DNA from: an uncultured Pseudomonadales bacterium | GTDB taxonomy: Bacteria; Patescibacteriota; Microgenomatia; UBA1400; UBA1449 | Direction: 5' to 3' | DNA: 64,000 nt | Assembly: GCA_964386355.1 (NCBI GenBank) | Contig: CAYLQQ010000002.1 | Coordinates: 45,374 to 109,373 of the forward strand | Part shown: in pieces, positions 466-49,300 of the stretch | Layout of the letters: every line of letters begins with the position of its first letter | How positions within the stretch are numbered: position 1 is the stretch's first letter | Program-made: the position numbers and the translations under genes | Notes under the pieces: model-generated | What the model was told of the DNA's origin: nothing | The model's input: only the letters and a program-made list of their open reading frames with translations | Database searches by the model: none

Positions 466-1250
466 ACGATTGGAAACGAGTTTGTGGTTATGGCGTACAG
501 GGTGCAGCTACTTATCAATAATATCATATTTAGCCAGTACCTCTTTACAAACAAAGAAAAACGCATTTTGTAGATCTGTTTTTTTATATCAAATACAAGC
601 ATGATGATAACTAAGCCGATAATTACCCCAAGTACTAACTTAGTAGAGTTGAAATAATTACTTGAAACATTTGATACAGGGGGATATGTTTGAGATGTTT
701 GATTTACAATGACTGCTTGTTGTGAATTGATCCAAGCTAGTTCTTCATCAGAAAATGGCGTAGCATAAAGCATGACTACAAGTATGCTACTTTTTCCATT
801 GATATTTCCCTGTATTGTCGCAATACCAGCTTGGGTAAACTTATCGTTTAAAATATTTGCTCTATGTCCAGGAGATTGCATCCAGGCTGTGACAAGGTCT
901 TCTTCCTTATAATAGTCTTTTCCCAGATTTTCACCCGCGTATTTATATACGTATCCTGCTTTTGTGATAAACTGCCAGGGTGTCTGACTGTTGGGAGATA
1001 AGTGGTCCCAATAATTGTTCTGTATCATGTCATTGGCTTTTAGTAGAGCAGCCTGATTAAGCTTGTTGTCGATTTGGAAATTTTGAAGATTGTACTGAGT
1101 ACGCTGTTGGTTCACAAGTTCGACTATTTGTGATGACTCAAGATTGAGAGCAATACCTAATACCGGCGAGTATGAACCAACTGATCTTGAGTATAAAAAA
1201 ATCTGCACGGTAATAATGAATAATAGGCATATATTACAGAGCTTTGGCAT
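462..1250 (-). CDS. CAP/SCP (YkwD-like) domain protein, membrane anchored
   Basis: YWDHLSPNSQTPWQFITKAGYVYKYAGENLGKDYYKEEDLVTAWMQSPGHRANILNDKFTQAGIA is a CAP/SCP core. The tracked ORF begins at a TTG (1349) that sits 3 nt from the divergent start at 1353. The internal ATG at 1250 gives a clean signal-anchor (MPKLCNICLLFIITVQIFL); the ATG at 1310 is an alternative. There is a C-terminal TM as well. Confidence 0.6.
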   Translation of the reverse strand: MPKLCNICLLFIITVQIFLYSRSVGSYSPVLGIALNLESSQIVELVNQQRTQYNLQNFQIDNKLNQAALLKANDMIQNNYWDHLSPNSQTPWQFITKAGYVYKYAGENLGKDYYKEEDLVTAWMQSPGHRANILNDKFTQAGIATIQGNINGKSSILVVMLYATPFSDEELAWINSQQAVIVNQTSQTYPPVSNVSSNYFNSTKLVLGVIIGLVIIMLVFDIKKQIYKMRFSLFVKRYWLNMILLISSCTLYAITTNSFPIV

Positions 1251-1894: not shown

Positions 1895-4150
1895 TCAATA
1901 CTCCGGAAGGATATTATAAACAATTGTTCCCTCGTATAGATCAGATGGCTGAAGATAATTTACCTCTATTGCATAGCTTACATAAACCGTTTTTTCTTCA
2001 GCTTCTTGTGAGGACATGACGCTGTGTGAGATGGTGCTTAAAGGACCAAATTTTGCTGATGCATTTGACCACCCCTCCACTCTTGTATCAGATGTATTTA
2101 CGCCCACCCAGCCCGTATTAACGTTCCGTACTATGCCATTTGGTGCTGACCATATTTGTGGGGTTTGCCATGTGACAGAAGTTGCGGCAAATTCATCAAT
2201 ATTATTATCGGGGTAGTTCCCCTGCATTTGATTATACAGTTTGACGCTAACATCATAGCCATAGTCTGTATTGCTGTTTACCGTCAGCTTGTGAGATCCG
2301 AACTTCGGTACGCCAACACTGAGATTACCGAATGGAAGGGTAGTGTGGGTTGTGTTTATATTTGTTGTAATTCCGTTGTTTGAAGTTCCTGTAGGTACAC
2401 CTTCGATAGCAAAAGATAAGCTAGGAGTAGCTCGATGGTATATATCAAATGTTTGTCCATCACTTTGTACTGCTGAAAATGATTGTAGAAGCAAGAGATC
2501 TGAATATATGGTTTGCTCAATGGGGTATGTTGTATAGTCGCCTGCGGTTTTATTGATTCGGATGTAGTACAGAGGATGTCCACCATTTACGGTTGATTTA
2601 GTCCATTCATTCGGAACAGTATAGTACACATTTCCAGCACTTGTAAATGTGCTAGCTCCTGAGTTGCTATTAGATATTGCAAGGGTAGACCAGGTATCAC
2701 AAGGAGTATTGATATCCAAGTTTGAGCCGCAGTAAGACCAAACGGTTATAATACCAGAACCTGCACCTTTGGTTTGTAGTTGGGTATTTACACCGCTAAA
2801 CTGCGTGTGATTACCCAGGTAAAGGTAATCATTAGAATTGTCAAAAATCTGGTAGCTGCCCTGATCAAAACTGGCATTATCTTGACTATCAGCCAAGTAC
2901 TCATTTGTATCAGATGCCAAGCCACCTCTTGCCAGCTGTTTCCAGGTGTTTGAGCTGTCATAAAACCAAGCTTGTGAAAATGGTATTAAATTGGCATTAT
3001 AATCTGTATTGATCGTACGGTTTGTGCCTTCGATAGAGAAATTGGTTGGTACATTGCTTGTGCGCCAGTTTCTAAATTTGAATATAGGGGCATATCTTGA
3101 GTACGTTTCCCCATCCAAATTAAAAGAAATTATATTGTTTGAAGTTATTAGCGGGTAACTGTTTTGGGTTTGGTTAAAGTAGTCGCTTTCTCCTGTATTG
3201 GTAAACTCACTAGCAGAACTCCAGGCTGAACCTACAGATATTTTGCCAAATAAGCTGTCTGGTTGCCATAAATCTACAGCATAGCTTTTTGCTTCATTAC
3301 CGCTTAAGCTATTATCGTCAGTAATCTGAAAAACATAAGTATACGTATATGACTGTCCTCCAGAAAGACTATCATCAGTAATCAAACCGGCTGTAATTAC
3401 ATTTTCATCATTCTGGTATAAAAATTCATTATTTGGGAAAAAGCTGGGTACTTCTAGGGCATGTATCATGTAATCATTATCAGTACCGGTAGCTGGGTCA
3501 GAACCGGTGAGTGTTAGGCTAATCCCAGGAGCTGTGTATGTAATGTCAGCCACGCTCTGAATAGCTGCGCTTGGTGTGACGGTACCAGGAGCTGTATCAT
3601 GATCAGAAATAAAAGCATTTTCATCAAATAAGCTTGGTGCAAACGAAATGTAAGGTCCAGTCATTCCAGTACCAGCTGTGGATGAGCTAAAGGCACCATG
3701 CACCACAATCCTATCGGGATATATGGTATAGATTTGGGTATATTCTCCATCATTACTAGAACCGCAAGCTCCGTCTGTAAAATCATAGAGATCCCCGCTT
3801 ACTGAGATGACAATTCTTGTTTGAGTAGATTCCAAAAGGTGTATTGAAGCATTACTTTCACAAAACATGCTGTTTGTATCTCGTGTGACTAAACCCATTC
3901 CATATAACCGATTTGAAGTGCTACTAGTATCGATAATATTAGTGCTGCTTGAGCTGGGAATAACTAAGCTCGATAGTACTCCCCCGAGATCGCTCCTAAA
4001 CGTTGCTTTCCAGCTCGGGGTGGAATTACTGTTAACAACAATTGTGGTTGCAGTTATAGAGTCTACGCTCACTGATGCGGCATATACTTGTTGAGTGCAG
4101 GTCAGAAAGGTGAACGATATGAGAAATAGAAAGATACATGTTAATCGCAT
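1895..4150 (-). CDS. large secreted Ser/Thr/Asn-rich surface protein (751 aa) with a C-terminal domain shared with the downstream paralog
   Basis: Signal peptide MRLTCIFLFLISFTFLTCTQQVYA; very high S/T/N/G content. C-terminal ~140 aa (LPFGNLSVGVPKFGSHKLTVNSN...NTGWVGVNTSD...VYVSYAIEVNYLQPSDLYEGTIVYNILPEY) aligns with the C-terminus of the 369-aa protein at 4229-5338. Confidence 0.6.
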   Translation of the reverse strand: MRLTCIFLFLISFTFLTCTQQVYAASVSVDSITATTIVVNSNSTPSWKATFRSDLGGVLSSLVIPSSSSTNIIDTSSTSNRLYGMGLVTRDTNSMFCESNASIHLLESTQTRIVISVSGDLYDFTDGACGSSNDGEYTQIYTIYPDRIVVHGAFSSSTAGTGMTGPYISFAPSLFDENAFISDHDTAPGTVTPSAAIQSVADITYTAPGISLTLTGSDPATGTDNDYMIHALEVPSFFPNNEFLYQNDENVITAGLITDDSLSGGQSYTYTYVFQITDDNSLSGNEAKSYAVDLWQPDSLFGKISVGSAWSSASEFTNTGESDYFNQTQNSYPLITSNNIISFNLDGETYSRYAPIFKFRNWRTSNVPTNFSIEGTNRTINTDYNANLIPFSQAWFYDSSNTWKQLARGGLASDTNEYLADSQDNASFDQGSYQIFDNSNDYLYLGNHTQFSGVNTQLQTKGAGSGIITVWSYCGSNLDINTPCDTWSTLAISNSNSGASTFTSAGNVYYTVPNEWTKSTVNGGHPLYYIRINKTAGDYTTYPIEQTIYSDLLLLQSFSAVQSDGQTFDIYHRATPSLSFAIEGVPTGTSNNGITTNINTTHTTLPFGNLSVGVPKFGSHKLTVNSNTDYGYDVSVKLYNQMQGNYPDNNIDEFAATSVTWQTPQIWSAPNGIVRNVNTGWVGVNTSDTRVEGWSNASAKFGPLSTISHSVMSSQEAEEKTVYVSYAIEVNYLQPSDLYEGTIVYNILPEY

Positions 4151-4228
4151 ACAATGATGATAACAAAGCTAATCTAAAAAAACACCCTCTCGTTGAGAGG
4201 GTGTTTATCTAATCCGTTCTAGAAATGT

Positions 4229-5338
4229 TTAGTAGGTAGGCAAGGCGTTGTAGTACAGTATTCCTGTGTAGGTATCAGCTGGCTGATACACATTTACCTC
4301 TAATGCATAACTGACATAATCAGAAGCACCTCCGTTATCTGAGACTAAACTCTTCATAACAGTTGATTCAGTAAGATCCGAAACTCCTGCAAATTGTGCA
4401 GTATCGTCTCCAGTCCAGTTTTCTACTTCATTATCTGATGTGTTGTATCCTACCCATCCAGTGTTTGTGTTAGCAGCATTACCAGTAGGTTCAGCCCAAA
4501 CTGAGTGGCTTCCAACGTGTGGGAACGGGTCAATATTGTTGGCACTATATACTCCGGTCATGGGAGTAACCATCTTAATAGATACTGTATAACCAGCCTG
4601 TGTGTTTGTGGTCACGGTCAGTTTATGAGCAGCATATTTGGGTGTGCCTGCAGTCAAAGCTCCAAATGGCAGAGTATTATAAGAGGATGACACTGACGTT
4701 GTAACGCCATTATGTGCCTCATTATTTGTCACACCATCCACAACAAATGTGAAGGTAGCATCGACACGGGCAGTCACGCTAACTTGCTCAACAAAAGTGA
4801 TTGATGCAACAGCAGAATCTATAAGATTATTGGCATCAGTGCTTGCATCACTATATGTACCTACTTTTACGTAACATGTGCCGGTTGATGAGTTACCAAC
4901 TGCATTACATCCTGAAATAGCAGGATTGGTAATGTTATTGATTGTAAAAGAAAATAATTGGCCACCTACTCCGAATGTTTGACCAGTAGAGTTAAGTTGA
5001 AAATAGTTTGACCCAGCAGAGCCACCTAAAGACCAAGTACCATCTATTCCGACGGGACTTACTAAAGCGTTAGTTGAAACTCCTGCTAAACCTAGACCGG
5101 TTGGTATAGTACAAGCTCCTCCCCACGTAGGTTCCTTACAGTAGGTAACTGTTATATTTTTGTAAGTTCCTGCAGTACTTGTAGTAAATTCAAATACATG
5201 ACTAGTCGAAACAGCAGGGCGTGGATCTGATAGTTTTGCTTTAAAACTTCGTAAAATACTTGCAGCACCCACCGGACGGACTAATAAAAGTCCTAAAACG
5301 AGTGCCCCAAAAAATGATAATAAGCGGGCAGTTTTCAT
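4229..5338 (-). CDS. secreted protein (369 aa), paralog of the C-terminal domain of the upstream 751-aa protein
   Basis: Signal peptide MKTARLLSFFGALVLGLLLVRPVGA; C-terminal LPFGALTAGTPKYAAHKLTVTTN...NTGWVGYNTSD...YVSYALEVNVYQPADTYTGILYYNALPTY matches the neighbour block for block. Confidence 0.6.
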   Translation of the reverse strand: MKTARLLSFFGALVLGLLLVRPVGAASILRSFKAKLSDPRPAVSTSHVFEFTTSTAGTYKNITVTYCKEPTWGGACTIPTGLGLAGVSTNALVSPVGIDGTWSLGGSAGSNYFQLNSTGQTFGVGGQLFSFTINNITNPAISGCNAVGNSSTGTCYVKVGTYSDASTDANNLIDSAVASITFVEQVSVTARVDATFTFVVDGVTNNEAHNGVTTSVSSSYNTLPFGALTAGTPKYAAHKLTVTTNTQAGYTVSIKMVTPMTGVYSANNIDPFPHVGSHSVWAEPTGNAANTNTGWVGYNTSDNEVENWTGDDTAQFAGVSDLTESTVMKSLVSDNGGASDYVSYALEVNVYQPADTYTGILYYNALPTY

Positions 5339-5482
5339 ATGTTCACCTCCCCTCTCAAACGGTCTATAAAAGTATACCGTTTAAGCAAATTAATAGTATG
5401 TATCCATGTTAGTAAGTTTGATGAGCTGTTGTCAAGAGGGTAATTGAGGAGTTATCTATAGTCGCTGATAAGACCGAGCTAA

Positions 5483-7180
5483 ATGATAGAAGATATTAAA
5501 ATTGTATCAGGATCAAGTATCATTTATACTCAGAGCATGGTACTTTCTGACGATGCATTACTAGAACAGTCACTCCAGGATATTGGGATTAAATCTTACA
5601 AGGATCCCTTTGGTATGCCTGACACGTTTATATATGATCCCATAAAACCCATACAAGAAAAAGAAGGCAGCAAACGGCAAGTCCGCTTTACCCAACTGCT
5701 GAACTATTCGTTTCCAGAAGAGATAGAAGGTGGAGTAGCCGAGGTAGGGGAGGTGATATATATCGGCGATGGGGTGTGCCGGGTGGTCGGCTTATCGAAA
5801 GCTGAAATCGAAGATGTAATCAATGTTAAAACAGGTAAGGGTTGGGAAAAGGCACTCATCTTAGGTATAGAAGATACCCATATTGAGTCAGTTGTTCTTG
5901 GAGATTATTCAAATATCAAACAGGGCGACCAGGTAATCGCAACTAACTCAAGGTTAAAAGTGCCTGTTGGTAAAACTCTGTATGGCCGGGTAATTAGTCC
6001 TCTCGGAGTGCCTATAGATGGTAAGGGCAAGATTGAACCCGAAACGTACCGGGATGTGGAATTTCCAGCCCCATCAGTTATGGAGCGTGAGCCCATTTTT
6101 GAACCCCTAAAAACAGGTGAGATGGTTATAGATGCTACGATCCCTATCGGTTTAGGCCAGAGAGAATTGGTGATAGGAGACCGAAAAAGCGGGAAGAGCA
6201 GGTTTGCTATCGACATCATTTCAAACCAAAAAGGCAGAAACATGATCTGTGTATATGTTGGAGTTGGAATGCAGGCTGCTAAGGCAAAGGCTACGCTTGA
6301 GCTTTTGGAATCTAGAGAGGCCATGGATTACACCATCATGGTTGTATCTACTTCTGATGATCCTCCGTCACTACAGTACATCTCTCCATATGTAGGTACT
6401 GCCATAGCGGAGCATTTTATGTATGCAGGCAAAAATGTCTTGATTATTTATGATGATCTATCAAAACAAGCAAAAGCTTATCGGCAGGTTTCATTGCTGT
6501 TGAAACGCTCGCCAGGTCGAGATGCATATCCTGGTGATATCTTCTTTTTACATTCCAGGCTACTTGAACGCTCATCAAAAATGCATCGCAAGCTGGGAGG
6601 AGGTGCCATTACTGCCCTACCCATTGCCGAAACCCAGTCCGGTGATATATCTGATTACATCATCACCAATCTCATGTCTATTACAGATGGGCACATTTAT
6701 CTGGATGCAAATATGATGCATGAGGGAATTTTACCGGCAGTAAACTCACAAGCCTCAGTTTCCCGTATCGGGAGTAAGGTCCAGTCAAGTTTGCTAAAAA
6801 AGGTAGGAGAGCTTGCTTCGAGAGCTCTAGCCCGGTATGCAGAGTTAAAATCATTTGAAACGATTAACACCGAAGTTGCAGAGGAAACACTTCGGGATAT
6901 ACGGAGAGGCAAAAAAGTAAAGGAAATGTTAGCTCAAGTATCATCAGTAAATTATTCTACAGATGAGATAGTAGTTTTGCTCCATTTAGTAACTTCAGAT
7001 AAGCTGGAGATGATCGATCTTACAGACCTGTCTAAGTTTAAGCTGGAATTCCTGGAATACTATAGAAAAATTGTGACTCCTGAATTTAGAGGTAAATGTG
7101 AATCGTCAAAAGACCTCAAAGATATCGATGGGGAAGTGTCTGTTATGCTGGATAGGTTTTTAAAGCAACGTACAAGTTAG
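5483..7180 (+). CDS. atpA: F-type ATPase alpha subunit, with about 45-65 aa N-terminal extension
   Basis: P-loop GDRKSGKS, then DDLSKQAKAYRQVSLLLKRSPGRDAYPGDIFFLHSRLLERS, typical of alpha. The N-terminal beta-barrel core starts at EVGEVIYIGDGVCRVVGL, after extra N-terminal residues. Confidence 0.9.
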   Translation: MIEDIKIVSGSSIIYTQSMVLSDDALLEQSLQDIGIKSYKDPFGMPDTFIYDPIKPIQEKEGSKRQVRFTQLLNYSFPEEIEGGVAEVGEVIYIGDGVCRVVGLSKAEIEDVINVKTGKGWEKALILGIEDTHIESVVLGDYSNIKQGDQVIATNSRLKVPVGKTLYGRVISPLGVPIDGKGKIEPETYRDVEFPAPSVMEREPIFEPLKTGEMVIDATIPIGLGQRELVIGDRKSGKSRFAIDIISNQKGRNMICVYVGVGMQAAKAKATLELLESREAMDYTIMVVSTSDDPPSLQYISPYVGTAIAEHFMYAGKNVLIIYDDLSKQAKAYRQVSLLLKRSPGRDAYPGDIFFLHSRLLERSSKMHRKLGGGAITALPIAETQSGDISDYIITNLMSITDGHIYLDANMMHEGILPAVNSQASVSRIGSKVQSSLLKKVGELASRALARYAELKSFETINTEVAEETLRDIRRGKKVKEMLAQVSSVNYSTDEIVVLLHLVTSDKLEMIDLTDLSKFKLEFLEYYRKIVTPEFRGKCESSKDLKDIDGEVSVMLDRFLKQRTS

Positions 7181-8164: not shown

Positions 8165-11973
<3,809 letters not shown>

Positions 11974-19929: not shown

Positions 19930-21810
19930 TTAATTATTTTTTACAAATAATCCAAGTATAGGCTTTTCTGTACTTTTAAAATCCTCGCTTTTCATCTGCA
20001 CTGACTGCGTGTTTGATCCGGCATTGAAGTTGATCCAGGCTTGCTCAAGTAAGCCTTCATCAACATAGGTCGGAATATTAAATAAACTTCCAAATGGCGG
20101 GACGGAACCGGGTCGTAAGCCCGTGACCTTTAGTAACGTATCCTTATCTACTAGAGCAACATCTTTAAATCCAGTTGCTTGCTTAAATGCTTTTAGGTCA
20201 AGTTTAGATGCAGCTGAGACAACAACCATGATGGGTTTGCCATCAGCCATACAAACCAAGGCTTTAGCACCGGATTCTATGGAAGTTCCTCTAGCTTGTG
20301 CGGCCTCTTCGCTGGTAAACACAGGTTTATGCTCGAATTTCTTGTACTCAACTTTTTCATTATCTAAGTAATTGCAGATCTGCTCAAAGATCGATTTAGA
20401 AGTAGTCTGTTTCATAGAGCGGATCTGAATACCCAGCTCTTTCATCTGTTCTTCTGAGATGGGGCTGGGGGCATCCATCACTGCCGTTCTACCTGTTGAG
20501 GTCATCGGGAAGGCAATTGCCTCTTTAAGAGAGCTTTGGTTACTTAATAGCATGACAAACCTGTCTAAACCCAATGCTAGACCACCATGTGGCGGAGTTC
20601 CAAGACGAAACGCTTCAAGCATATGACCAACTGATGCTTCAATTTCTTCTTTAGAATATCCCATTATCTCAAACGTTTTATAAAGAGCGTTTGGGTTATG
20701 TGCCCGGATAGATCCTCCACCCATTTCGTATCCATTACAAACAAGGTCATATTGTGTTGTGAGAATATTCTCAATATTTTTCCCTTCCAGATGATCGGCA
20801 ATAAACTCATCTTTAGGCTGAGAAAACGGGTTGTGAGTGAATGTCCAGCCGCTTTTACCGTCACGCACCTCGGCCACGTCTTCTTTATTTACTTTCTTGA
20901 AAAATGGAAAGTCTACTACCCAAGCAAAAGCTAATACTCCATCCTTCTTTTCCTGTTCCGTTCGGATATCAAACCTGTCTGCACCATAGGTTTTAATAGC
21001 TTCATCATAAGTAATTATGGGAAATTTCCCTTCTCTTAGTTTACCTCCTACAGCCAAGATTGCTGCTTTGGTAGCCTGTTCAACCATTTCCATTACGTCC
21101 TCTCGTTTGACAAAGGACATCTCCAAATCAAGCTGGGTAAACTCAAATCCCCGGTCAGCCCGCAGATCCTCATCGCGGATGCAACGGGCAATCTGGAAAT
21201 AGCGTTCAAAGCCGGCTGTCATCAAAAGCTGTTTGTACTGCTGGGGTGATTGGGGCAAGGCATAGAACTTGCCTGGTTGGAAACGGGAAGGAACCACAAA
21301 ATCTCGGGCGCCTTCTTTGGTTGATTTGGTCAGCATGGGTGTCTCGATCTCGACAAAATCATTGGCAAATAAAGACTTGCGGAACTCTTCGATGAGCTTA
21401 CTTCGAAGCCTGATTGCTTTTTGCAGACGCTCACGTCGAAGGTCCAGGTATCTGTATTTTAACTTGAGCTCTTCATCAAGTTGAGTGCCATCAGTATCTA
21501 TGGGGAAGGGTAGTTCTTTGCATTCATTTAACAGGCTAAATGATGATGCTTGAATTTCGATTGCGCCGGTAGGAAGGTCTTTATTTACCATTTGCTCGGG
21601 ACGGTTATTAACTATACCGACTACTTCAACCACATCTTCCTGACTGAGTTTTCCCATTTTTGAGTCGCCCACTACCTGCACCTTGCCCGATCTATCGCGA
21701 AGCTCGATGAAAACTAATTTGCCGTGATCGCGGACCGTATCAACCCAACCTTGTAGCAAGATCTCCTCACCAATCTTTTTAAATGTTTCAAGTGCGAGTG
21801 TGCGTTTCAT
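19930..21810 (-). CDS. aspS: aspartyl-tRNA synthetase (no GAD insertion) with a C-terminal YbaK/ProX-type deacylase domain
   Basis: Class II motif 2 FQIARCIRDEDLRADRGFEFTQLDLEMSF, motif 3 GGLALGLDRFVMLL. The C-terminal ~155 aa (KALVCMADGKPIMVVVSAASKLDLKAFKQATGFKDVALVDKDTLLKVTGLRPGSVPPFG) aligns along its length with E. coli YbaK, including the conserved Lys and the GxxxPxG loop. Good SD AAAGGAGATAT before the ATG. Confidence 0.85.
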   Translation of the reverse strand: MKRTLALETFKKIGEEILLQGWVDTVRDHGKLVFIELRDRSGKVQVVGDSKMGKLSQEDVVEVVGIVNNRPEQMVNKDLPTGAIEIQASSFSLLNECKELPFPIDTDGTQLDEELKLKYRYLDLRRERLQKAIRLRSKLIEEFRKSLFANDFVEIETPMLTKSTKEGARDFVVPSRFQPGKFYALPQSPQQYKQLLMTAGFERYFQIARCIRDEDLRADRGFEFTQLDLEMSFVKREDVMEMVEQATKAAILAVGGKLREGKFPIITYDEAIKTYGADRFDIRTEQEKKDGVLAFAWVVDFPFFKKVNKEDVAEVRDGKSGWTFTHNPFSQPKDEFIADHLEGKNIENILTTQYDLVCNGYEMGGGSIRAHNPNALYKTFEIMGYSKEEIEASVGHMLEAFRLGTPPHGGLALGLDRFVMLLSNQSSLKEAIAFPMTSTGRTAVMDAPSPISEEQMKELGIQIRSMKQTTSKSIFEQICNYLDNEKVEYKKFEHKPVFTSEEAAQARGTSIESGAKALVCMADGKPIMVVVSAASKLDLKAFKQATGFKDVALVDKDTLLKVTGLRPGSVPPFGSLFNIPTYVDEGLLEQAWINFNAGSNTQSVQMKSEDFKSTEKPILGLFVKNN

Positions 21811-22005
21811 ATATCTCCTTTAATCATTAATAATTTGAACAATAGGTACAAAAAAACCGCCATAGTTCCCCATCAAAAAGGGCCAATCTGGCGGTACCAC
21901 CTAATTCTTTACTTATCCTGCTATTACGGGCTTACCCGTTCCGGTTATTACTCCGGACAGCTCGTCCTTTGTCAGAGGACTCAGACGCTTGTATGATTTA
22001 TTAGT
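21811..22005 (-). promoter_or_regulatory. T-box-like riboswitch leader of aspS (Asp specifier GAC)
   Basis: On the minus-strand RNA, a T-box sequence AAUUAGGUGGUACCGCC (plus strand 21890-21906) overlaps a terminator, CCGCCAGA...CUAUGGCGG followed by UUUUUUU (21851-21894). Upstream, the hairpin GUCCU-CUGACAA-AGGAC (21964-21980) carries GAC in its loop. A CGGGUAAGCCCG hairpin and an AGCAGG block are shared with the serS leader. Confidence 0.6.
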
Positions 22006-22064
22006 AATAATTATAAAATATGAGGGAAAAAAATACAAACTGAAATCAAAACCTAATTTAATTA

Positions 22065-22093
22065 TTGACGAGAGCGAAGTTTACTATAGAATA
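22065..22093 (+). promoter_or_regulatory. putative sigma70-like promoter (TTGACG-N16-TAGAAT)
   Basis: Consensus-like hexamers read from the sequence; drives the short structured transcript at 22100-22250. Confidence 0.3.
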
Positions 22094-22223
22094 ATTAGGC
22101 TATGAATTGCAGATCCAATTACCAACACCTTACCAAATGCCAAGTCCGCTTTATGTGGATTATTTTGGGTGGTATTAAGGAGGTTCTTGGGTAAGTTTGT
22201 ATAAAAAGATAGAAAACCAAAAC

Positions 22224-22249
22224 CTCCTTAAACCAAGGAGGTTTTTTTA
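22224..22249 (+). terminator. rho-independent terminator (CCTCCTT-AAACC-AAGGAGG, then T7) that also sequesters the SD of the next ORF
   Basis: Perfect 7-bp stem followed by TTTTTTT and ATG at 22249. An upstream copy of AAGGAGGTT (about 22166) can pair with the same CCTCCTT instead. Confidence 0.5.
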
Positions 22250-22494
22250 TGCCCTATGATGAAACCGCAACTTCTTTCTCAATCAACCGATTCAAACCTG
22301 TATGTAAGCAGAGGCACTGAACTGCCTTGGCAGTATGTATATCGGCAACTACGCCTACATAAGCTTTCAGATGTAACCAGCTATCAAGTTAACGGTAATT
22401 TGTACATCGTTGTTTCGGTGGGAAAGGAGAAAAATAATGCATAATTTTAAAATATCAATGTTCAAAATAGTTAATAATTTTATTGGAGGTAAAT

Positions 22495-32010: not shown

Positions 32011-32012
32011 AG

Positions 32013-32085
32013 TGATCCCACGGGGAATCGAACCCCGGTTTACGGGATGAGAACCCGCTGTCCTAGGCCACTAGACGATGGGACC
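32013..32085 (-). tRNA. tRNA-Glu (anticodon CUC), CCA not encoded
   Basis: Reverse complement GGTCCCATCGTCTAGTGGCCTAGGACAGCGGGTTCTCATCCCGTAAACCGGGGTTCGATTCCCCGTGGGATCA folds as a cloverleaf: 7-bp acceptor stem, anticodon loop UUCUCAU, TTCGATT T-loop. The genome continues CT after the discriminator A. Confidence 0.85.
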
Positions 32086-32995: not shown

Positions 32996-35290
32996 ATGTA
33001 TTGGGCAGATAAAATCGCAGATCAGATTGTAAAAAGTGGACAGCATAAACCATACTGGGTTGATGATATGAAAACCCCCTCTGGAAGGATTCATGTTGGG
33101 TCTTTACGGGGTGTGTTGATACATGATTTTGTCCACAAAGCTCTTATGCATCAAGGAAAATCCTCGACTTTTACGTATGTGTACAACGACATGGATCCAA
33201 TGGATGCATTACCGGGGTACTTAGATAAAGATGTTTATACTCAACATATGGGTAAGCCTCTGTATAAAATACCTGCACCTGAAGGTAACAAAAGTTTTGC
33301 TCAGTATTATGCCGATGAGTTTACTGGGGTTTTTAATCGCCTTGGGGCAACTCCCAAGATAGTGTTGTCGCATGAGCTGTATGAATCCGGCCAGATGAAT
33401 CCTCTTATACAGATAGCTTTAGATAATGTTGAAGAGTTAAAACACATTTATCGCGACATTGCTCATTACGAATTAGAAAAGAACTGGTATCCATTTCAGG
33501 TATTCTGTGAGCACTGCGGAAAAGAGGGTTCTACTACAACCTATCATTGGGATGGTGAGTATGTATATTACCGATGTGAAAAAAGTAAAGTAGAATGGGC
33601 TGTTGGCTGTGGTCATGAGGGCAAGGTTTCACCCTTTAACGGTACCGGTAAATTTCTTTGGAAAGTTGACTGGCCAGCTCACTGGAAGTTGATTGGTATT
33701 ACTATTGAAGGTGCTGGAAAGGATCATACTTCAGCCGGAGGTTCCCGTGATATGGCTCGGGAAATTGTGAAGCGTGTTTTCAAATACCCTGAGCCGTATG
33801 ACATCCCTTATGAGTGGTTGCTTATCCGTGGTGCCAAAATGTCTTCATCTAAAGGTATTGGAGCCTCTGCTAAAGAGTTTGCTGATCTTTTACCTCCGGA
33901 AGTGGGTAGGTTCTTGTTTGCCCGTACCCATTGCAATACAGTAATCGATTTTGATTTAGTTGGTAATACCATCCCTGATCTATTTGATGAATATGACAAA
34001 TGTGCACAGGCATATTTTAGTGGTAAACAAGATATGTATGCCCGGATTTATGAAGCTTCACAAGTGACTGATAAAAAATCAGATCCCGTATTTTTACCAA
34101 GATTTAGAGATGTAGCAATGTATAGCCAAATGCCCAGCGTTGATCTGATTGCAAAATTTGAACAGGTAAAAGGTTCTATCTTATCACCTGCAGAAAGGCA
34201 TATCCTGGAAGAGAGGGTAAATTACGCAAAGAAGTGGATTAAAAACTATGCTCCGTCTAATTTGAACTTTCAACTCTCAGATAACTCAACTCAATCTGTA
34301 ACACTTAATCAAAAACAGAAAGATTATTTAGGCTCTGTAATAGCGTTATTACAGAAAACATGGAATAAACCGGAAGATTTTCAATTTGAGCTGTTTGAAG
34401 AAACAAAACGACTTGGAATTTCAGCCAAGGAAGCTTTTGCTGCCATTTATCAGATACTGTTAGGTAAGAATTTTGGTCCTAAAGCAGCATGGTTTCTGTT
34501 GGAACAGGATAAAGAAGAGTTAATTAAGCGATTTAGCGAGGTGATAGGAGAAACTAATAAAAGTGATGTATCCATTTCCCAAACTTTTCCAACAATTACT
34601 GACTCAAAGATGATACAAATCAGTACAGCCATTGCACATCAATACCCTTCAGTGCATATCGGGTTTGCCATTATCAGAGGCATACAAGTGGTCAAAACCA
34701 ATGAACAGCTAGAACAAGAAAAAGAAACCCTATATGCAAAACTAAAAAGCATGACGACAGAAGAGATTGGCACTATGCCAGAGATCTTAAGTTATAGAAA
34801 AATGTACAAACAAATGGGGGTAGATTGGCATTCCAGAAGGCCTAGTCCAGAAGCTTTACTACGCCGTATCGTACAAGGCAAGGATTTGTATGCTGTAAAT
34901 ACTTGCGTTGATGCGTACAACCTGATTGTGATGAAATATAGAGTAAGTGTCGGGACATTTGACCTAAAAAATTTGGATTTTCCGGTAGAACTGTGTGTTG
35001 CGAAGGGTGGAGAAAAGATATTGCTTTTGGGCAATGATGAAGAAACCGAAATAAAAGCAGGTGAAGTGTATTATCAAGATCAAACTGGACCATACAATCT
35101 AGATTATAACTACAGAGACTCTCAGCGGGTGAGTGTGAATGAAGACACTGAAGACATTATGATCAACGTTGATGGCGTGTATGATGTTGGTAGACCACAT
35201 GTAGAAAGAGCACTGAAAGAGACTTTAGAGATTATCAAAAAGTACTGCGGTGGAGTGATAGAAGTCGCTGGTATTATTGAAGCGAAATAA
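32996..35290 (+). CDS. class I lysyl-tRNA synthetase with a C-terminal B3/4 (COG3382-like) domain
   Basis: HIGH-region TPSGRIHVGSLRG and KMSSSKG are the LysRS-I signature. Residues about 540-764 (PSPEALLRRIVQGKDLYAVNTCVDAYNLIVMKYRVSVGTFDL...GEVYYQD) fit the B3/4 tRNA-binding/editing-domain pattern known from PheRS beta. Confidence 0.75.
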   Translation: MYWADKIADQIVKSGQHKPYWVDDMKTPSGRIHVGSLRGVLIHDFVHKALMHQGKSSTFTYVYNDMDPMDALPGYLDKDVYTQHMGKPLYKIPAPEGNKSFAQYYADEFTGVFNRLGATPKIVLSHELYESGQMNPLIQIALDNVEELKHIYRDIAHYELEKNWYPFQVFCEHCGKEGSTTTYHWDGEYVYYRCEKSKVEWAVGCGHEGKVSPFNGTGKFLWKVDWPAHWKLIGITIEGAGKDHTSAGGSRDMAREIVKRVFKYPEPYDIPYEWLLIRGAKMSSSKGIGASAKEFADLLPPEVGRFLFARTHCNTVIDFDLVGNTIPDLFDEYDKCAQAYFSGKQDMYARIYEASQVTDKKSDPVFLPRFRDVAMYSQMPSVDLIAKFEQVKGSILSPAERHILEERVNYAKKWIKNYAPSNLNFQLSDNSTQSVTLNQKQKDYLGSVIALLQKTWNKPEDFQFELFEETKRLGISAKEAFAAIYQILLGKNFGPKAAWFLLEQDKEELIKRFSEVIGETNKSDVSISQTFPTITDSKMIQISTAIAHQYPSVHIGFAIIRGIQVVKTNEQLEQEKETLYAKLKSMTTEEIGTMPEILSYRKMYKQMGVDWHSRRPSPEALLRRIVQGKDLYAVNTCVDAYNLIVMKYRVSVGTFDLKNLDFPVELCVAKGGEKILLLGNDEETEIKAGEVYYQDQTGPYNLDYNYRDSQRVSVNEDTEDIMINVDGVYDVGRPHVERALKETLEIIKKYCGGVIEVAGIIEAK

Positions 35291-46345: not shown

Positions 46346-47008
46346 TTATTTGCATAGAACAAACATATTTGATAGGTTTCTGATCAGCTTTATATCAGAA
46401 AAATGTTTTTCAAGCTGTTTGATCAGCTTGGGAACCTTTTGTTTGTATTGGTCAAAGAAGAGATGATTAACCAGTAATTGACCTTGGGGATTAATAGTGT
46501 GTCTTATTTTATCTAGAAATTGTGTTTGATATAATTGCTTAGGTATCTCATGACCCTGGTACAGATCTACCAAGACTAGATCGTATTTCTGATTACAGTT
46601 TTGTATCCAGTGAAAACAGTTAGATTGAATTAGTTGTAAGGAAACAGAATTATTATTACGTACAGTTCTAAAATATTTTTCATAGATTACAATCATGACC
46701 GGATCTATTTCAATGCCTGTGATTTGGGCATTGGGGAATTTTTTAAATAGGAGTTGGGCAGCGGTACCACCGCCAAAGCCGAGGATCAATATTTGTAAGG
46801 GTACATCATGATGCACCCCTACTGATTTCAATGGTTTCTGCCATAGGTCTTTGATAATACTTCCGGATTGCAGCAGGCCTCCAGCATAAATTTTCCGCTG
46901 CCCAAATTGTTCGACAACCATAACCTCCCCGTTATACTGAGAATTGTATGTTTCTATTGTGTTTGGGAATAAAAATTTAGATGCTTTACTTAGAACCATA
47001 GTACTCAT
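46346..47008 (-). CDS. spermidine-synthase-like SAM-dependent methyltransferase-fold protein
   Basis: ILILGFGGGTAAQLL, then ITGIEIDPVMI and VLVDLYQGHEIP, resembles the PABS family. Confidence 0.45.
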   Translation of the reverse strand: MSTMVLSKASKFLFPNTIETYNSQYNGEVMVVEQFGQRKIYAGGLLQSGSIIKDLWQKPLKSVGVHHDVPLQILILGFGGGTAAQLLFKKFPNAQITGIEIDPVMIVIYEKYFRTVRNNNSVSLQLIQSNCFHWIQNCNQKYDLVLVDLYQGHEIPKQLYQTQFLDKIRHTINPQGQLLVNHLFFDQYKQKVPKLIKQLEKHFSDIKLIRNLSNMFVLCK

Positions 47009-47779: not shown

Positions 47780-49048
47780 TTATCTAATGTTCTCTTTACC
47801 CATGTACGATTGTAGTACTTTTGGTACATATACCGATCCATCTGCTTGTTGGAAATTTTCCAAAACTGCAATTAGAATCCTCGGGCTGGCAATAGCAGTA
47901 TTATTGAGCATGTGGACAAATTTTATTTGGCCATCCTTGGCTTGGTACTTAACATTTGCTCGTCTTGATTGGTACTCACCCATCATTGAGCAAGACATGG
48001 TTTCACCATACTCCTGCCTTCCGGGCATCCAAGTTTCGATATCATACTTTTTGACTTGAGGCTCACCCATATCGCCAGTACACATAAGTAACACGTGATA
48101 TGGGAGACCTAATTCCTGAAGAATTTCTTCTGAATATGATCTTAGATTCTCATGCCATTTCTTTGATTCTTCCCAGTCATTTTTACATATAATAACCTGT
48201 TCAACCTTAGCAAATTCATGAATGCGGTAAATTCCTTTTGTATCTTTGCCGTAACTACCGATCTCCCGCCTGAAGCACTGGCTATATCCTGCATACAACT
48301 TTGGCAGTTCTTTTTCTGGTAAAGTTTCATCCATGTGGTATGACACAAGCGGAACTTCGGCTGTACCTGCCAGGTAGCGGGCATCCTGATTGTCTTTATC
48401 ATCATATGTTTTGTAGACATCTTCTTTACCCCAAGGGAAATGGGCAGTGTTGTAAAACGGACGTTCGAGTAAAACAGTGGGAGGAATTACCGGAGTGAAG
48501 CCTTTTTCTATTAATTTTTTTAGTGCAAATTGCAGAATTGCCAAGTGAAGTAGGGCACCATCTCCCTTTAGGTAATAACCTCGAAATCCTGCAACCTTTA
48601 CACCCCTGTCCATGTCAAGTATTCCTAGGTCTAAACCCAGTTGGATATGGTCTTTAGGCTGGAAATCGAACTTGGTAGGCTCCCCCCACTTTGAGATCTC
48701 AATGTTACCGCTGCTGTCTTTACCAATGGGGACTTCTGGAGCAGGGACGTTTGGAATAGTGAACATCAATCTATCATATTCCTGTTCAACCTCTCTCAGT
48801 TGCGGTTCAAGGGCTGCTAATTGGTCTTTGAGTGCTTTGCCCTGGTCAATTATCTCCTGACTTGGTTTGCCAAACACCCCTTTCATCAGGTCATTGCGCT
48901 GCTTGCGAATTTCTTCAGTTTGCTTAATTAAGCTGCGTCGTTTCTCATCAGCTGCTAATAGTTCGTCTATGGTATCTTTGACACCTTTACTTGCAGCAGC
49001 CTGCTTGACCAAGTCTTTGTTGTCACGGATGAATTGGATATCTAGCAT
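47780..49048 (-). CDS. serS: seryl-tRNA synthetase
   Basis: N-terminal coiled coil; motif 2 FRREIGSYGKDTKGIYRIHEF; motif 3 region; 422 aa. Confidence 0.9.
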   Translation of the reverse strand: MLDIQFIRDNKDLVKQAAASKGVKDTIDELLAADEKRRSLIKQTEEIRKQRNDLMKGVFGKPSQEIIDQGKALKDQLAALEPQLREVEQEYDRLMFTIPNVPAPEVPIGKDSSGNIEISKWGEPTKFDFQPKDHIQLGLDLGILDMDRGVKVAGFRGYYLKGDGALLHLAILQFALKKLIEKGFTPVIPPTVLLERPFYNTAHFPWGKEDVYKTYDDKDNQDARYLAGTAEVPLVSYHMDETLPEKELPKLYAGYSQCFRREIGSYGKDTKGIYRIHEFAKVEQVIICKNDWEESKKWHENLRSYSEEILQELGLPYHVLLMCTGDMGEPQVKKYDIETWMPGRQEYGETMSCSMMGEYQSRRANVKYQAKDGQIKFVHMLNNTAIASPRILIAVLENFQQADGSVYVPKVLQSYMGKENIR

Positions 49049-49300
49049 ATTTGATATTTAGAATTAAGAACAATGAATTTAGCAAATAAATTCAATTATG
49101 TTCTATTTTTCATTTTATGTGCTCTTAATTACCAAAAACCGCCACTAACCCTATACGTAAAAGGGCCAATATGGCGGTACCACCTTTATTTTGTCGCTAA
49201 AAGCATCGCTTTTAACTTCCTCAACCTGCTGTAACGGGCTTACCCGGGCTTGCATTTCCTCAAGCCAACTCGACAGTTGGAAGCTGTCTCAAATGTTGTT
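49049..49300 (-). promoter_or_regulatory. T-box-like riboswitch leader of serS (Ser specifier UCC)
   Basis: On the minus-strand RNA, a T-box sequence AAUAAAGGUGGUACCGCC (plus strand 49171-49190) overlaps a terminator, CCGCCAU...GUGGCGG followed by UUUUU (49134-49179). The specifier-like hairpin GACAG-CUUCCAA-CUGUC (49272-49288) and the CGGGUAAGCCCG and AGCAGG blocks are shared with the aspS leader. Confidence 0.6.

Follow-up and report, generated by a model that had tools for sequence, protein, structure and literature searches.

The window analysed here is a stretch of 64,000 nucleotides (nt) from contig CAYLQQ010000002.1 (assembly GCA_964386355.1, deposited as an uncultured Pseudomonadales bacterium), in which the gene aspS occupies positions 19930..21810 of the minus strand. 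It encodes an aspartyl-tRNA synthetase (AspRS) of 626 amino acids (aa) with a C-terminal YbaK-type editing domain. The product scores 591 bits with the NCBIfam model NF001750 (aspartate--tRNA ligase; cutoff 443) and matches the Pfam families tRNA-synt_2, tRNA_anti-codon and tRNA_edit; its match to the bacterial model is split in two, which suggests that the insertion domain is lacking. The fusion to a YbaK/ProX-type tRNA_edit domain is common to all 120 AspRS homologues listed, and those of the same architecture are named as Beckwithbacteria, Woesebacteria, Dojkabacteria or Patescibacteria group, which indicates that the source of the window is Microgenomates-like, within the candidate phyla radiation (CPR), and not a Firmicute. 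Upstream of the gene, at about 22003-21850 on the same strand, sequence, folding and comparison reveal a leader that is very probably a tRNA-sensing T-box riboswitch specific for tRNA-Asp, acting most likely by transcription attenuation.

All elements of the leader lie on the minus strand. It is preceded by a putative sigma-70-type promoter (22010..22038), in which a weak -35 element (UUGUAU, 22038-22033) is separated by a 17-nt spacer from a near-consensus -10 element (UAUAAU, 22015-22010); transcription is predicted to start at about 22003. An automatic promoter scan of the window did not list it because the -35 element matches at just 3 of 6 positions. By eye, TATAAT or TATACT was seen at a comparable upstream distance in many related leaders. 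The first structural element is an ultrashort stem I (21959..21989), made of a kink-turn (K-turn)-like GA motif, a 5-bp helix GUCCU/AGGAC and a 7-nt loop. The K-turn at the base of stem I is present by sequence, with a C-stem AGC/GCU, a GUCU bulge and G.A/A.G pairs from the flanks UGA...GAG; the C-stem covaries (AGC/GCU, AAC/GUU), and the fold is predicted. Helix and loop together form the specifier hairpin GUCCU-CUGACAA-AGGAC (21980-21964), whose apical loop CUGACAA (21969..21975) presents the Asp codon GAC (21973-21971) followed by A. The specifier is thus placed in a terminal loop, not in an S-turn-bearing internal loop, and the leader has neither a long stem I nor the AG bulge and distal loop that form the tRNA-elbow platform.

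Two further hairpins follow. The first, UCCGG-AGUAAUAA-CCGGA (21940..21957), has 5 bp and an 8-nt loop of the RGUARYAA type, without an internal S-turn. The second, CGGG-UAAG-CCCG (21938-21927), runs into an F-box-like CCCGUAA and an invariant AGCAGG tail, the whole (21917..21938) being the presumed IIA/B pseudoknot region. They are read as a reduced stem II and as stem IIA with its F-box-like sequence because of the way in which the Rfam T-box model RF00230 aligns with a paralogous leader of serS, described below. Stem III is absent. The decoding module measures about 74 nt (21990-21917), and the distance from K-turn to U-tract is about 140 nt. Candidate partners for a IIB pseudoknot (the IIA loop with the AGCAGG tail; GCUGU with AUAGC of the minimum free energy fold) showed no convincing complementarity or covariation, and the GCU is better explained as part of the K-turn C-stem.

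The 3' half of the leader contains the T-box sequence AAUUAGGUGGUACCGCC (21890..21906), in which UGGU (21899-21896) is the predicted partner of the 3' NCCA end of a tRNA. Within it, UAGGUGGUACCGCC at 21903-21890 agrees with the conserved T-box sequence (AGGGUGGNACCGCG), the core GGUGGNACCGC being exact, and 11 of 14 positions agree with the 14-mer quoted in PMC11297988. An antiterminator can be drawn at 21879..21902, with an A1 helix AGG/CCU, a 7-nt bulge UGGUACC and an A2 hairpin GCCA-GAU-UGGC, at -3.7 kcal/mol. It competes with an intrinsic terminator (21850..21895) in which ACCGCCA (21895-21889) pairs with UGGCGGU (21862-21856) around an inner CCC/GGG, followed by a U7 tract that ends at 21850; with a minimum free energy of -18.5 kcal/mol the terminator is far more stable. 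Its 5' arm is drawn from the bulge (ACC) and from the 5' strand of A2, and the two folds are mutually exclusive since both need ACCGCCA. The Shine-Dalgarno sequence AAGGAG (21820-21815) and the aspS start codon ATG (21810-21808), together at 21808..21820, lie outside the terminator helix; the ATG stands 46 nt past the last terminator stem pair, and the Shine-Dalgarno sequence, 29 nt past the U-run, is unpaired in both folds.

Much of this had been proposed in an original prediction made from the window's letters and its open reading frames (ORFs). The T-box consensus match, the terminator that shares its 3' part and ends in U7, the Shine-Dalgarno sequence and ATG some 45 nt further on and the hairpin GUCCU/AGGAC with loop CUGACAA were all recovered at the positions given above, and the proposed folding check yielded the mutually exclusive structures just described, including an antiterminator that contains the UGGUACC bulge. 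The proposal of GAC as an Asp specifier gains from its position upstream of an AspRS gene and from a codon that tracks the downstream gene across relatives. Both of the additional hairpins that it listed exist, although the loop of the last one is UAAG and not UAA. Its view of the leader as glyQS-like with no obvious stem II has to be reversed, since distal stem I and stem III have been lost while a reduced stem II and stem IIA have been kept.

In the mechanism that we propose, GAC in the 7-nt apical loop of the short K-turn stem I would pair with the GUC anticodon of tRNA-Asp, and the mini stem II with the IIA/B region would replace the missing elbow-binding platform, by analogy with the actinobacterial ileS T-boxes. 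An uncharged tRNA-Asp would pair its free NCCA end with the UGGU of the bulge and so stabilise the weak antiterminator against the strong terminator, upon which RNA polymerase would read through into aspS. A strong terminator set against a weak antiterminator is customary in T-boxes, where the balance is tipped by the acceptor end of an uncharged tRNA. Charged tRNA would be unable to stabilise the antiterminator, and transcription would stop at the U7 tract. A leader-peptide attenuator was also considered and rejected on inspection: the sole small ORF, AUGGGGAAC...UAA, has one Asp codon, has no Shine-Dalgarno sequence and is not Asp-rich.

Scanning the whole window with Rfam 15 at gathering thresholds gave a tRNA-Glu as the sole match and no T-box. 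With at most one mismatch allowed, the core GGTGGNACCGC turns up three times in the window where 0.98 occurrences would be expected, and 9 of 100 shuffled sequences yield as many; taken alone, the T-box core is not beyond chance in the window. One of the copies, an exact GGTGGTACCGC at 46761-46771 on the minus strand, lies inside ORF 46346-47008, where it codes for GFGGGTAAQ, and is taken as a chance match and not as a leader. By eye, GFGGGTAAQ looks like a glycine-rich nucleotide-binding motif. The modest standing of the core, together with the lack of an RF00230 match on the aspS leader, is what would be expected of a chance likeness or a decayed relic, that is, of a constitutive terminator or attenuator without tRNA sensing. 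The leader owes its significance to its context: a serS paralog with a switched codon, compensatory conservation in orthologues and other relatives, and family-wide statistics. The same three lines of evidence make a chance or relic origin very improbable.

The paralogous leader, which holds another of the three copies of the core, lies at 49134..49300 on the minus strand, upstream of the coding sequence 47780-49048, identified as serS by TIGR00414. Its stem I reads GACAG-CUUCCAA-CUGUC, and the Ser codon UCC (49281-49279) stands in the CU-NNN-AA loop exactly where aspS has GAC. Besides a stem II and a stem III, the serS leader has the IIA motif found in the aspS leader, with which it can be aligned over its whole length. 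In a small search RF00230 gives it 50.2 bits (E=2.3e-10), where the gathering score is 93; the alignment assigns its UGA/GAG flanks to the K-turn, skips 76 stem I model positions, and continues through stem II, stem IIA with CGUUA, stem III and the T-box antiterminator. As with aspS, a terminator of -21.5 kcal/mol is set against an antiterminator of -5.5 kcal/mol. T-box, antiterminator and terminator are nearly identical between the two leaders, notably in the T-box/A2/A1 stretch AGGUGGUACCGCCAnAUUGGCCCUUUU, and comparable within-genome similarity was seen in a relative represented by contigs L002 and L066. The likeness of the aspS and serS leaders suggests that one was duplicated and its codon switched, or that the two evolve in concert.

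The orthologous aspS leaders point in the same direction. In genes whose products are 82, 73 and 68% identical to the window's AspRS the GAC loop is kept and stem I is compensated (GUCCU/AGGAC, GUUGG/CCAAC and GCCAG/CUGGC). In the most distant of these leaders (L005) compensation extends to the antiterminator, where GUCA/UGAC replaces GCCA/UGGC in A2 and CGA/UCG replaces AGG/CCU in A1.

We then surveyed one genome per GTDB species with a 22-nt stem IIA/F-box motif, CGGGTAAGCCCGTNANAGCAGG, a pattern that contains no other element of the leader. The scan gave 108 loci, nearly all from Patescibacteria, distributed over Pace-, Woese-, Beckwith-, Gottesman-, Moran-, Buchanan-, Magasanik- and Nomurabacteria, WWE3 and Saccharibacteria; several loci per genome were common. 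Two of the loci, one archaeal and one from a planctomycete, have no T-box whatever and were set aside as chance matches. Three others (L030, L056 and L095) were read from their sequence as canonical long-stem-I leaders in Bacillota-type genomes, L095 being the only one confirmed above the Rfam threshold; the IIA motif that they have in common with the patescibacterial loci speaks for these leaders being homologous to the T-box family. Downstream of the anchor motif, 108 of 110 non-redundant leaders carry a GGUGGNACC-type T-box (regular expression TGGNA[CA][CA]). The 8-nt-loop stem II (RGUARYAA) is present in 29 related leaders, and the canonical AGAA...AGUAGA S-turn in 31 of the 40 long forms. 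The antiterminator was parsed with a script that required A1 of at least 3 bp, a 7-nt UGGNACC bulge and A2 of at least 3 bp, because MAFFT failed on the antiterminator 3' strands, where A2 varies in length. The parse fits 99 of 108 leaders, against an expectation of 29 when the downstream sequence is shuffled and of 14-51 when the bulge is shifted.

A covariance model, R1, built from 11 short-form leaders, scores 106.6 bits on the aspS leader and 81.1 bits on the serS leader, and finds nothing else in the window but one weak antisense match. This last (9793-9875, minus strand; 21.7 bits, E about 0.008) lies antisense in ORF 8165-10555, in sequence of 31% GC, and is probably noise. Covariation was measured on an R1-fitted alignment of 100 leaders whose loci had been chosen through the IIA motif. 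Paired cells make up 93.6%, against 66.7% after shuffling and at most 46.6% with slid partners, and double-change cells number 400 against 104. Changes on both sides are seen in all five pairs of stem I, of whose cells 96% are paired, in all three of the C-stem (91.5%) and in all five of stem II.

The codon displayed in stem I follows the gene downstream. The genes behind the related leaders cluster as AspRS (34), isoleucyl- (IleRS, 27), seryl- (SerRS, 23) and valyl-tRNA synthetase (ValRS, 9), named through NCBIfam on representatives. Two finders of stem I were used: a strict one that demands K-turn flanks, and so misses hairpins with atypical flanks or insertions, and an unconstrained one with a high background. 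With the strict finder, the loops of AspRS leaders contain GAC 17 times, AAC six times and AGC three times, and AUC, GUC or UCC never; those of IleRS leaders contain AUC 16 times and GAC never; SerRS leaders have UCC (8) or AGC (7), and ValRS leaders GUC (4). The unconstrained finder places the cognate codon in a hairpin loop in 85 of 87 leaders, where 10,000 shuffles of the labels gave a mean of 51.9 (standard deviation 3.8) and a maximum of 65. Throughout the related leaders the specifier codons end in C, usually followed by A, and NNC specifier codons followed by A are typical of known T-boxes.

These loops also bear on the idea that the hairpin is a mimic of an anticodon arm bound by AspRS itself, an autoregulation of the E. 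coli thrS operator type in which its T-box-like appearance would be a coincidence. With 5 bp in its stem and a 7-nt CU-NNN-AA loop, the hairpin does have the shape of an anticodon arm. What the loop shows, however, is the codon GAC and not the anticodon GUC, the leaders of serS, ileS and valS likewise show codons, and mimicry would leave unexplained both the conserved 7-nt-bulge antiterminator and the correlation between UGGN and the discriminator base given below. We find this explanation hardly credible.

A few AspRS leaders depart from the rule. Those of L053, L061, L083 and L068 have AAC (Asn) in the stem I loop and not GAC; judged from their sequence, they may represent control of a non-discriminating AspRS by tRNA-Asn. 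An Asn-specifier T-box controlling a non-discriminating AspRS exists in Clostridium acetobutylicum, and some patescibacterial AspRS leaders carry AAC as in that case, whereas the aspS leader of the window carries GAC. The AspRS leader of L059 (Gottesmanbacteria) is an exception of another kind, with a K-turn-flanked stem I GUCCU-GAGUUUACCGA-AGGAC and no GAC in the loop. At L111, a HAD-family hydrolase, perhaps a phosphoserine phosphatase (SerB-like; 567-1238, minus strand), lies downstream of a leader, recognised by eye, that contains UCC (GGCUUUCCAAC); neither hairpin finder picked this UCC loop. If the L111 leader is real, the family is not restricted to genes of aminoacyl-tRNA synthetases.

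Across the related leaders, the last base of UGGN clearly follows the discriminator base expected for the cognate tRNA. N is U in 28 of 34 Ile/Val leaders, while 38 of the 56 Asp/Ser leaders have a C there (Fisher p=3.7e-6). At these loci the patescibacterial tRNA-Ser genes have G73 and the tRNA-Val gene has A73.

A different mode of action has to be weighed for a riboswitch of this shape. Every characterised T-box with an ultrashort stem I controls translation (PMC7583486), and by inspection the A1 3' strand, CCCUUUU, is weakly complementary to the Shine-Dalgarno AAGGAG, so that the aspS leader could act on translation or on mRNA stability, with the U-run hairpin as sequestrator or stability element. 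Yet the competing helix runs straight into U7, and the Shine-Dalgarno sequence lies beyond the U-run and outside the helix. Of the 99 related leaders whose antiterminator could be parsed, 88 possess an overlapping helix, 5 bp or longer, whose start lies within the antiterminator and which leads directly into a U-run, where shuffled sequence would give 25.5; the median distance from the U-run to the called start codon is 34 nt. We regard control of translation or stability as improbable and retain a transcriptional T-box as the preferred reading.

Several observations weigh against that reading. In the aspS leader the N of UGGN is U; no tRNA-Asp gene was found in the window or in the retrieved related loci, and G73 is usual for bacterial tRNA-Asp. 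If the tRNA-Asp of this organism has G73, UGGU would pair with the discriminator through a G.U wobble only. The A1 helix of the aspS antiterminator has only 3 bp, and the alignment behind the covariation is both model-fitted and motif-selected. The distal platform of stem I, the S-turn specifier loop, the S-turn of stem II and stem III are all missing. A permissive Rfam scan of 21700-22300 found no RF00230 match on the aspS leader at E<=10, and the gathering score of 93 bits is reached by none of 16 related patescibacterial leaders, while a canonical Bacillota control reaches it. Moreover, transcriptional T-boxes generally need a long stem I with an elbow-binding motif, for the kinetic reason of fast tRNA capture (PMC7583486). 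The original prediction had staked itself on a match to this covariance model and on an antiterminator that includes the UGGU bulge, and of the two only the second was obtained. The cross-species evidence outweighs the failure of RF00230. By its core features the aspS leader belongs to the T-box family, and it fails several of the peripheral features that define the family as well as the Rfam threshold.

Compared with the canonical transcriptional T-box (RF00230, Bacillus subtilis tyrS type), the aspS leader shares a K-turn at the base of stem I, an NNC specifier followed by a purine, a stem IIA whose F-box-like sequence reads CCGUNA, the GGUGGNACCGC T-box, a 7-nt-bulge antiterminator, a stronger intrinsic terminator and its position upstream of an aminoacyl-tRNA synthetase gene. 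It differs in that about 76 nt of stem I are gone (by the RF00230 alignment of the serS leader), that neither the platform of AG bulge and distal loop nor the internal S-turn specifier loop is present, that stem II is an 8-nt-loop hairpin, that stem III is absent and that it scores below the Rfam threshold. The terminator 5' arm also begins inside the bulge, with ACC and the A2 strand, whereas in canonical T-boxes it begins at the antiterminator 3' strand. The glyQS type and the aspS leader are both compact and transcriptional and both do without some accessory stems, but glyQS-type leaders keep the long stem I and platform and have no stem II or IIA/B, and the aspS leader is the converse.

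The closest relative in design is the translational ileS T-box of Actinobacteria (Mycobacterium tuberculosis, M. smegmatis, Nocardia farcinica; TBDB class II), whose decoding module follows the same logic as the aspS leader. There, a K-turn stem I with an apical specifier is followed by stem II and a 22-nt IIA/B region (PMC10651847; PMC7583486). The module is smaller in the aspS leader, at about 74 nt against 87-99 nt in the ileS T87/T99 constructs, and its stem II has no S-turn, an element that is essential in ileS. Unlike the actinobacterial leaders, the aspS leader has a terminator with a U-run and a Shine-Dalgarno sequence that is not sequestered; also unlike them, its relatives are found in Patescibacteria, precede AspRS, IleRS, SerRS and ValRS genes and use codons for Asp, Asn (AAC, in some AspRS leaders), Ser, Val and Ile. 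In the literature examined, we found no actinobacterial ileS leader sequence with which the IIA motif CGGGUAAGCCCGUNANAGCAGG could be compared.

We lean, if only slightly, towards the view that Patescibacteria (CPR) possess a widespread and unannotated class of doubly minimised T-boxes, with a K-turn stem I, a codon in a 7-nt apical loop and (in the aspS/serS subclass) an 8-nt-loop stem II, that act co-transcriptionally through intrinsic terminators on genes for at least AspRS, SerRS, IleRS and ValRS. We found no paper that links T-boxes with Patescibacteria, CPR, Parcubacteria or Saccharibacteria, in a search that mostly did not reach subscription journals. Of the short-stem leaders described by Sherwood and colleagues in 2015, reportedly 'many', and not all, are translational. 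Some precedent may therefore exist.

T-boxes are a model for how an RNA senses tRNA charging and are targets for antibiotics. If the proposed class is real, the tRNA-elbow platform and the stem II S-turn would be dispensable for transcriptional T-box function, and the 74-nt decoding module would be, as far as we know, the smallest natural one. The leader offers a minimal natural scaffold that spans about 140 nt between K-turn and U-tract. T-boxes occurring in CPR are compatible with the placement of this group among Terrabacteria, and CPR would be added to the lineages that bear them. As the patescibacterial leaders score below the Rfam threshold, standard annotation misses this regulation of aminoacyl-tRNA synthetases in Patescibacteria. 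In the current view an ultrashort stem I goes with the slower translational control of Actinobacteria (PMC7583486); terminator-bearing leaders with an ultrashort stem I in another, very reduced lineage make the rule of the long stem I directly testable.

Other features of the window and of the retrieved loci were noted in passing. The contig itself is also present in SRR11845627. Weak Rfam matches at 22090-22300 (Phe_leader and others) were discarded, as they all reflect one terminator-like hairpin at 22219-22245. This 12-bp hairpin, AAAACCUCCUU-GGU-UUAAGGAGGUUUU, has U-runs on both strands and looks like a bidirectional terminator; it is unrelated to the aspS leader, which it separates from the genes upstream. 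The gene at 32996-35290 (plus strand) encodes a class I lysyl-tRNA synthetase to which a B3_4 domain is fused, with an upstream gap of 90 nt that contains no T-box, and a tRNA-Glu(CUC) gene lies near it at 32012-32085 (minus strand). The ORFs 1895-4150 (minus strand, 751 aa) and 8165-10555 (plus strand, 796 aa) have no Pfam match at E<=0.001. CPR-type genes occur in many metagenome-assembled genomes whose records bear the titles 'uncultured Pseudomonadales', 'Gammaproteobacteria' or 'Bdellovibrionales', and such titles look unreliable; examples are a genome whose AspRS-YbaK fusion shares 82% identity with the window's protein and a record named HK-STAS-PATE-16. At L028, the IleRS gene (2621-6649, minus strand) encodes a protein of 1343 aa in which a histidine-phosphatase (phosphoglycerate-mutase-like) domain is inserted at about residues 513-680.

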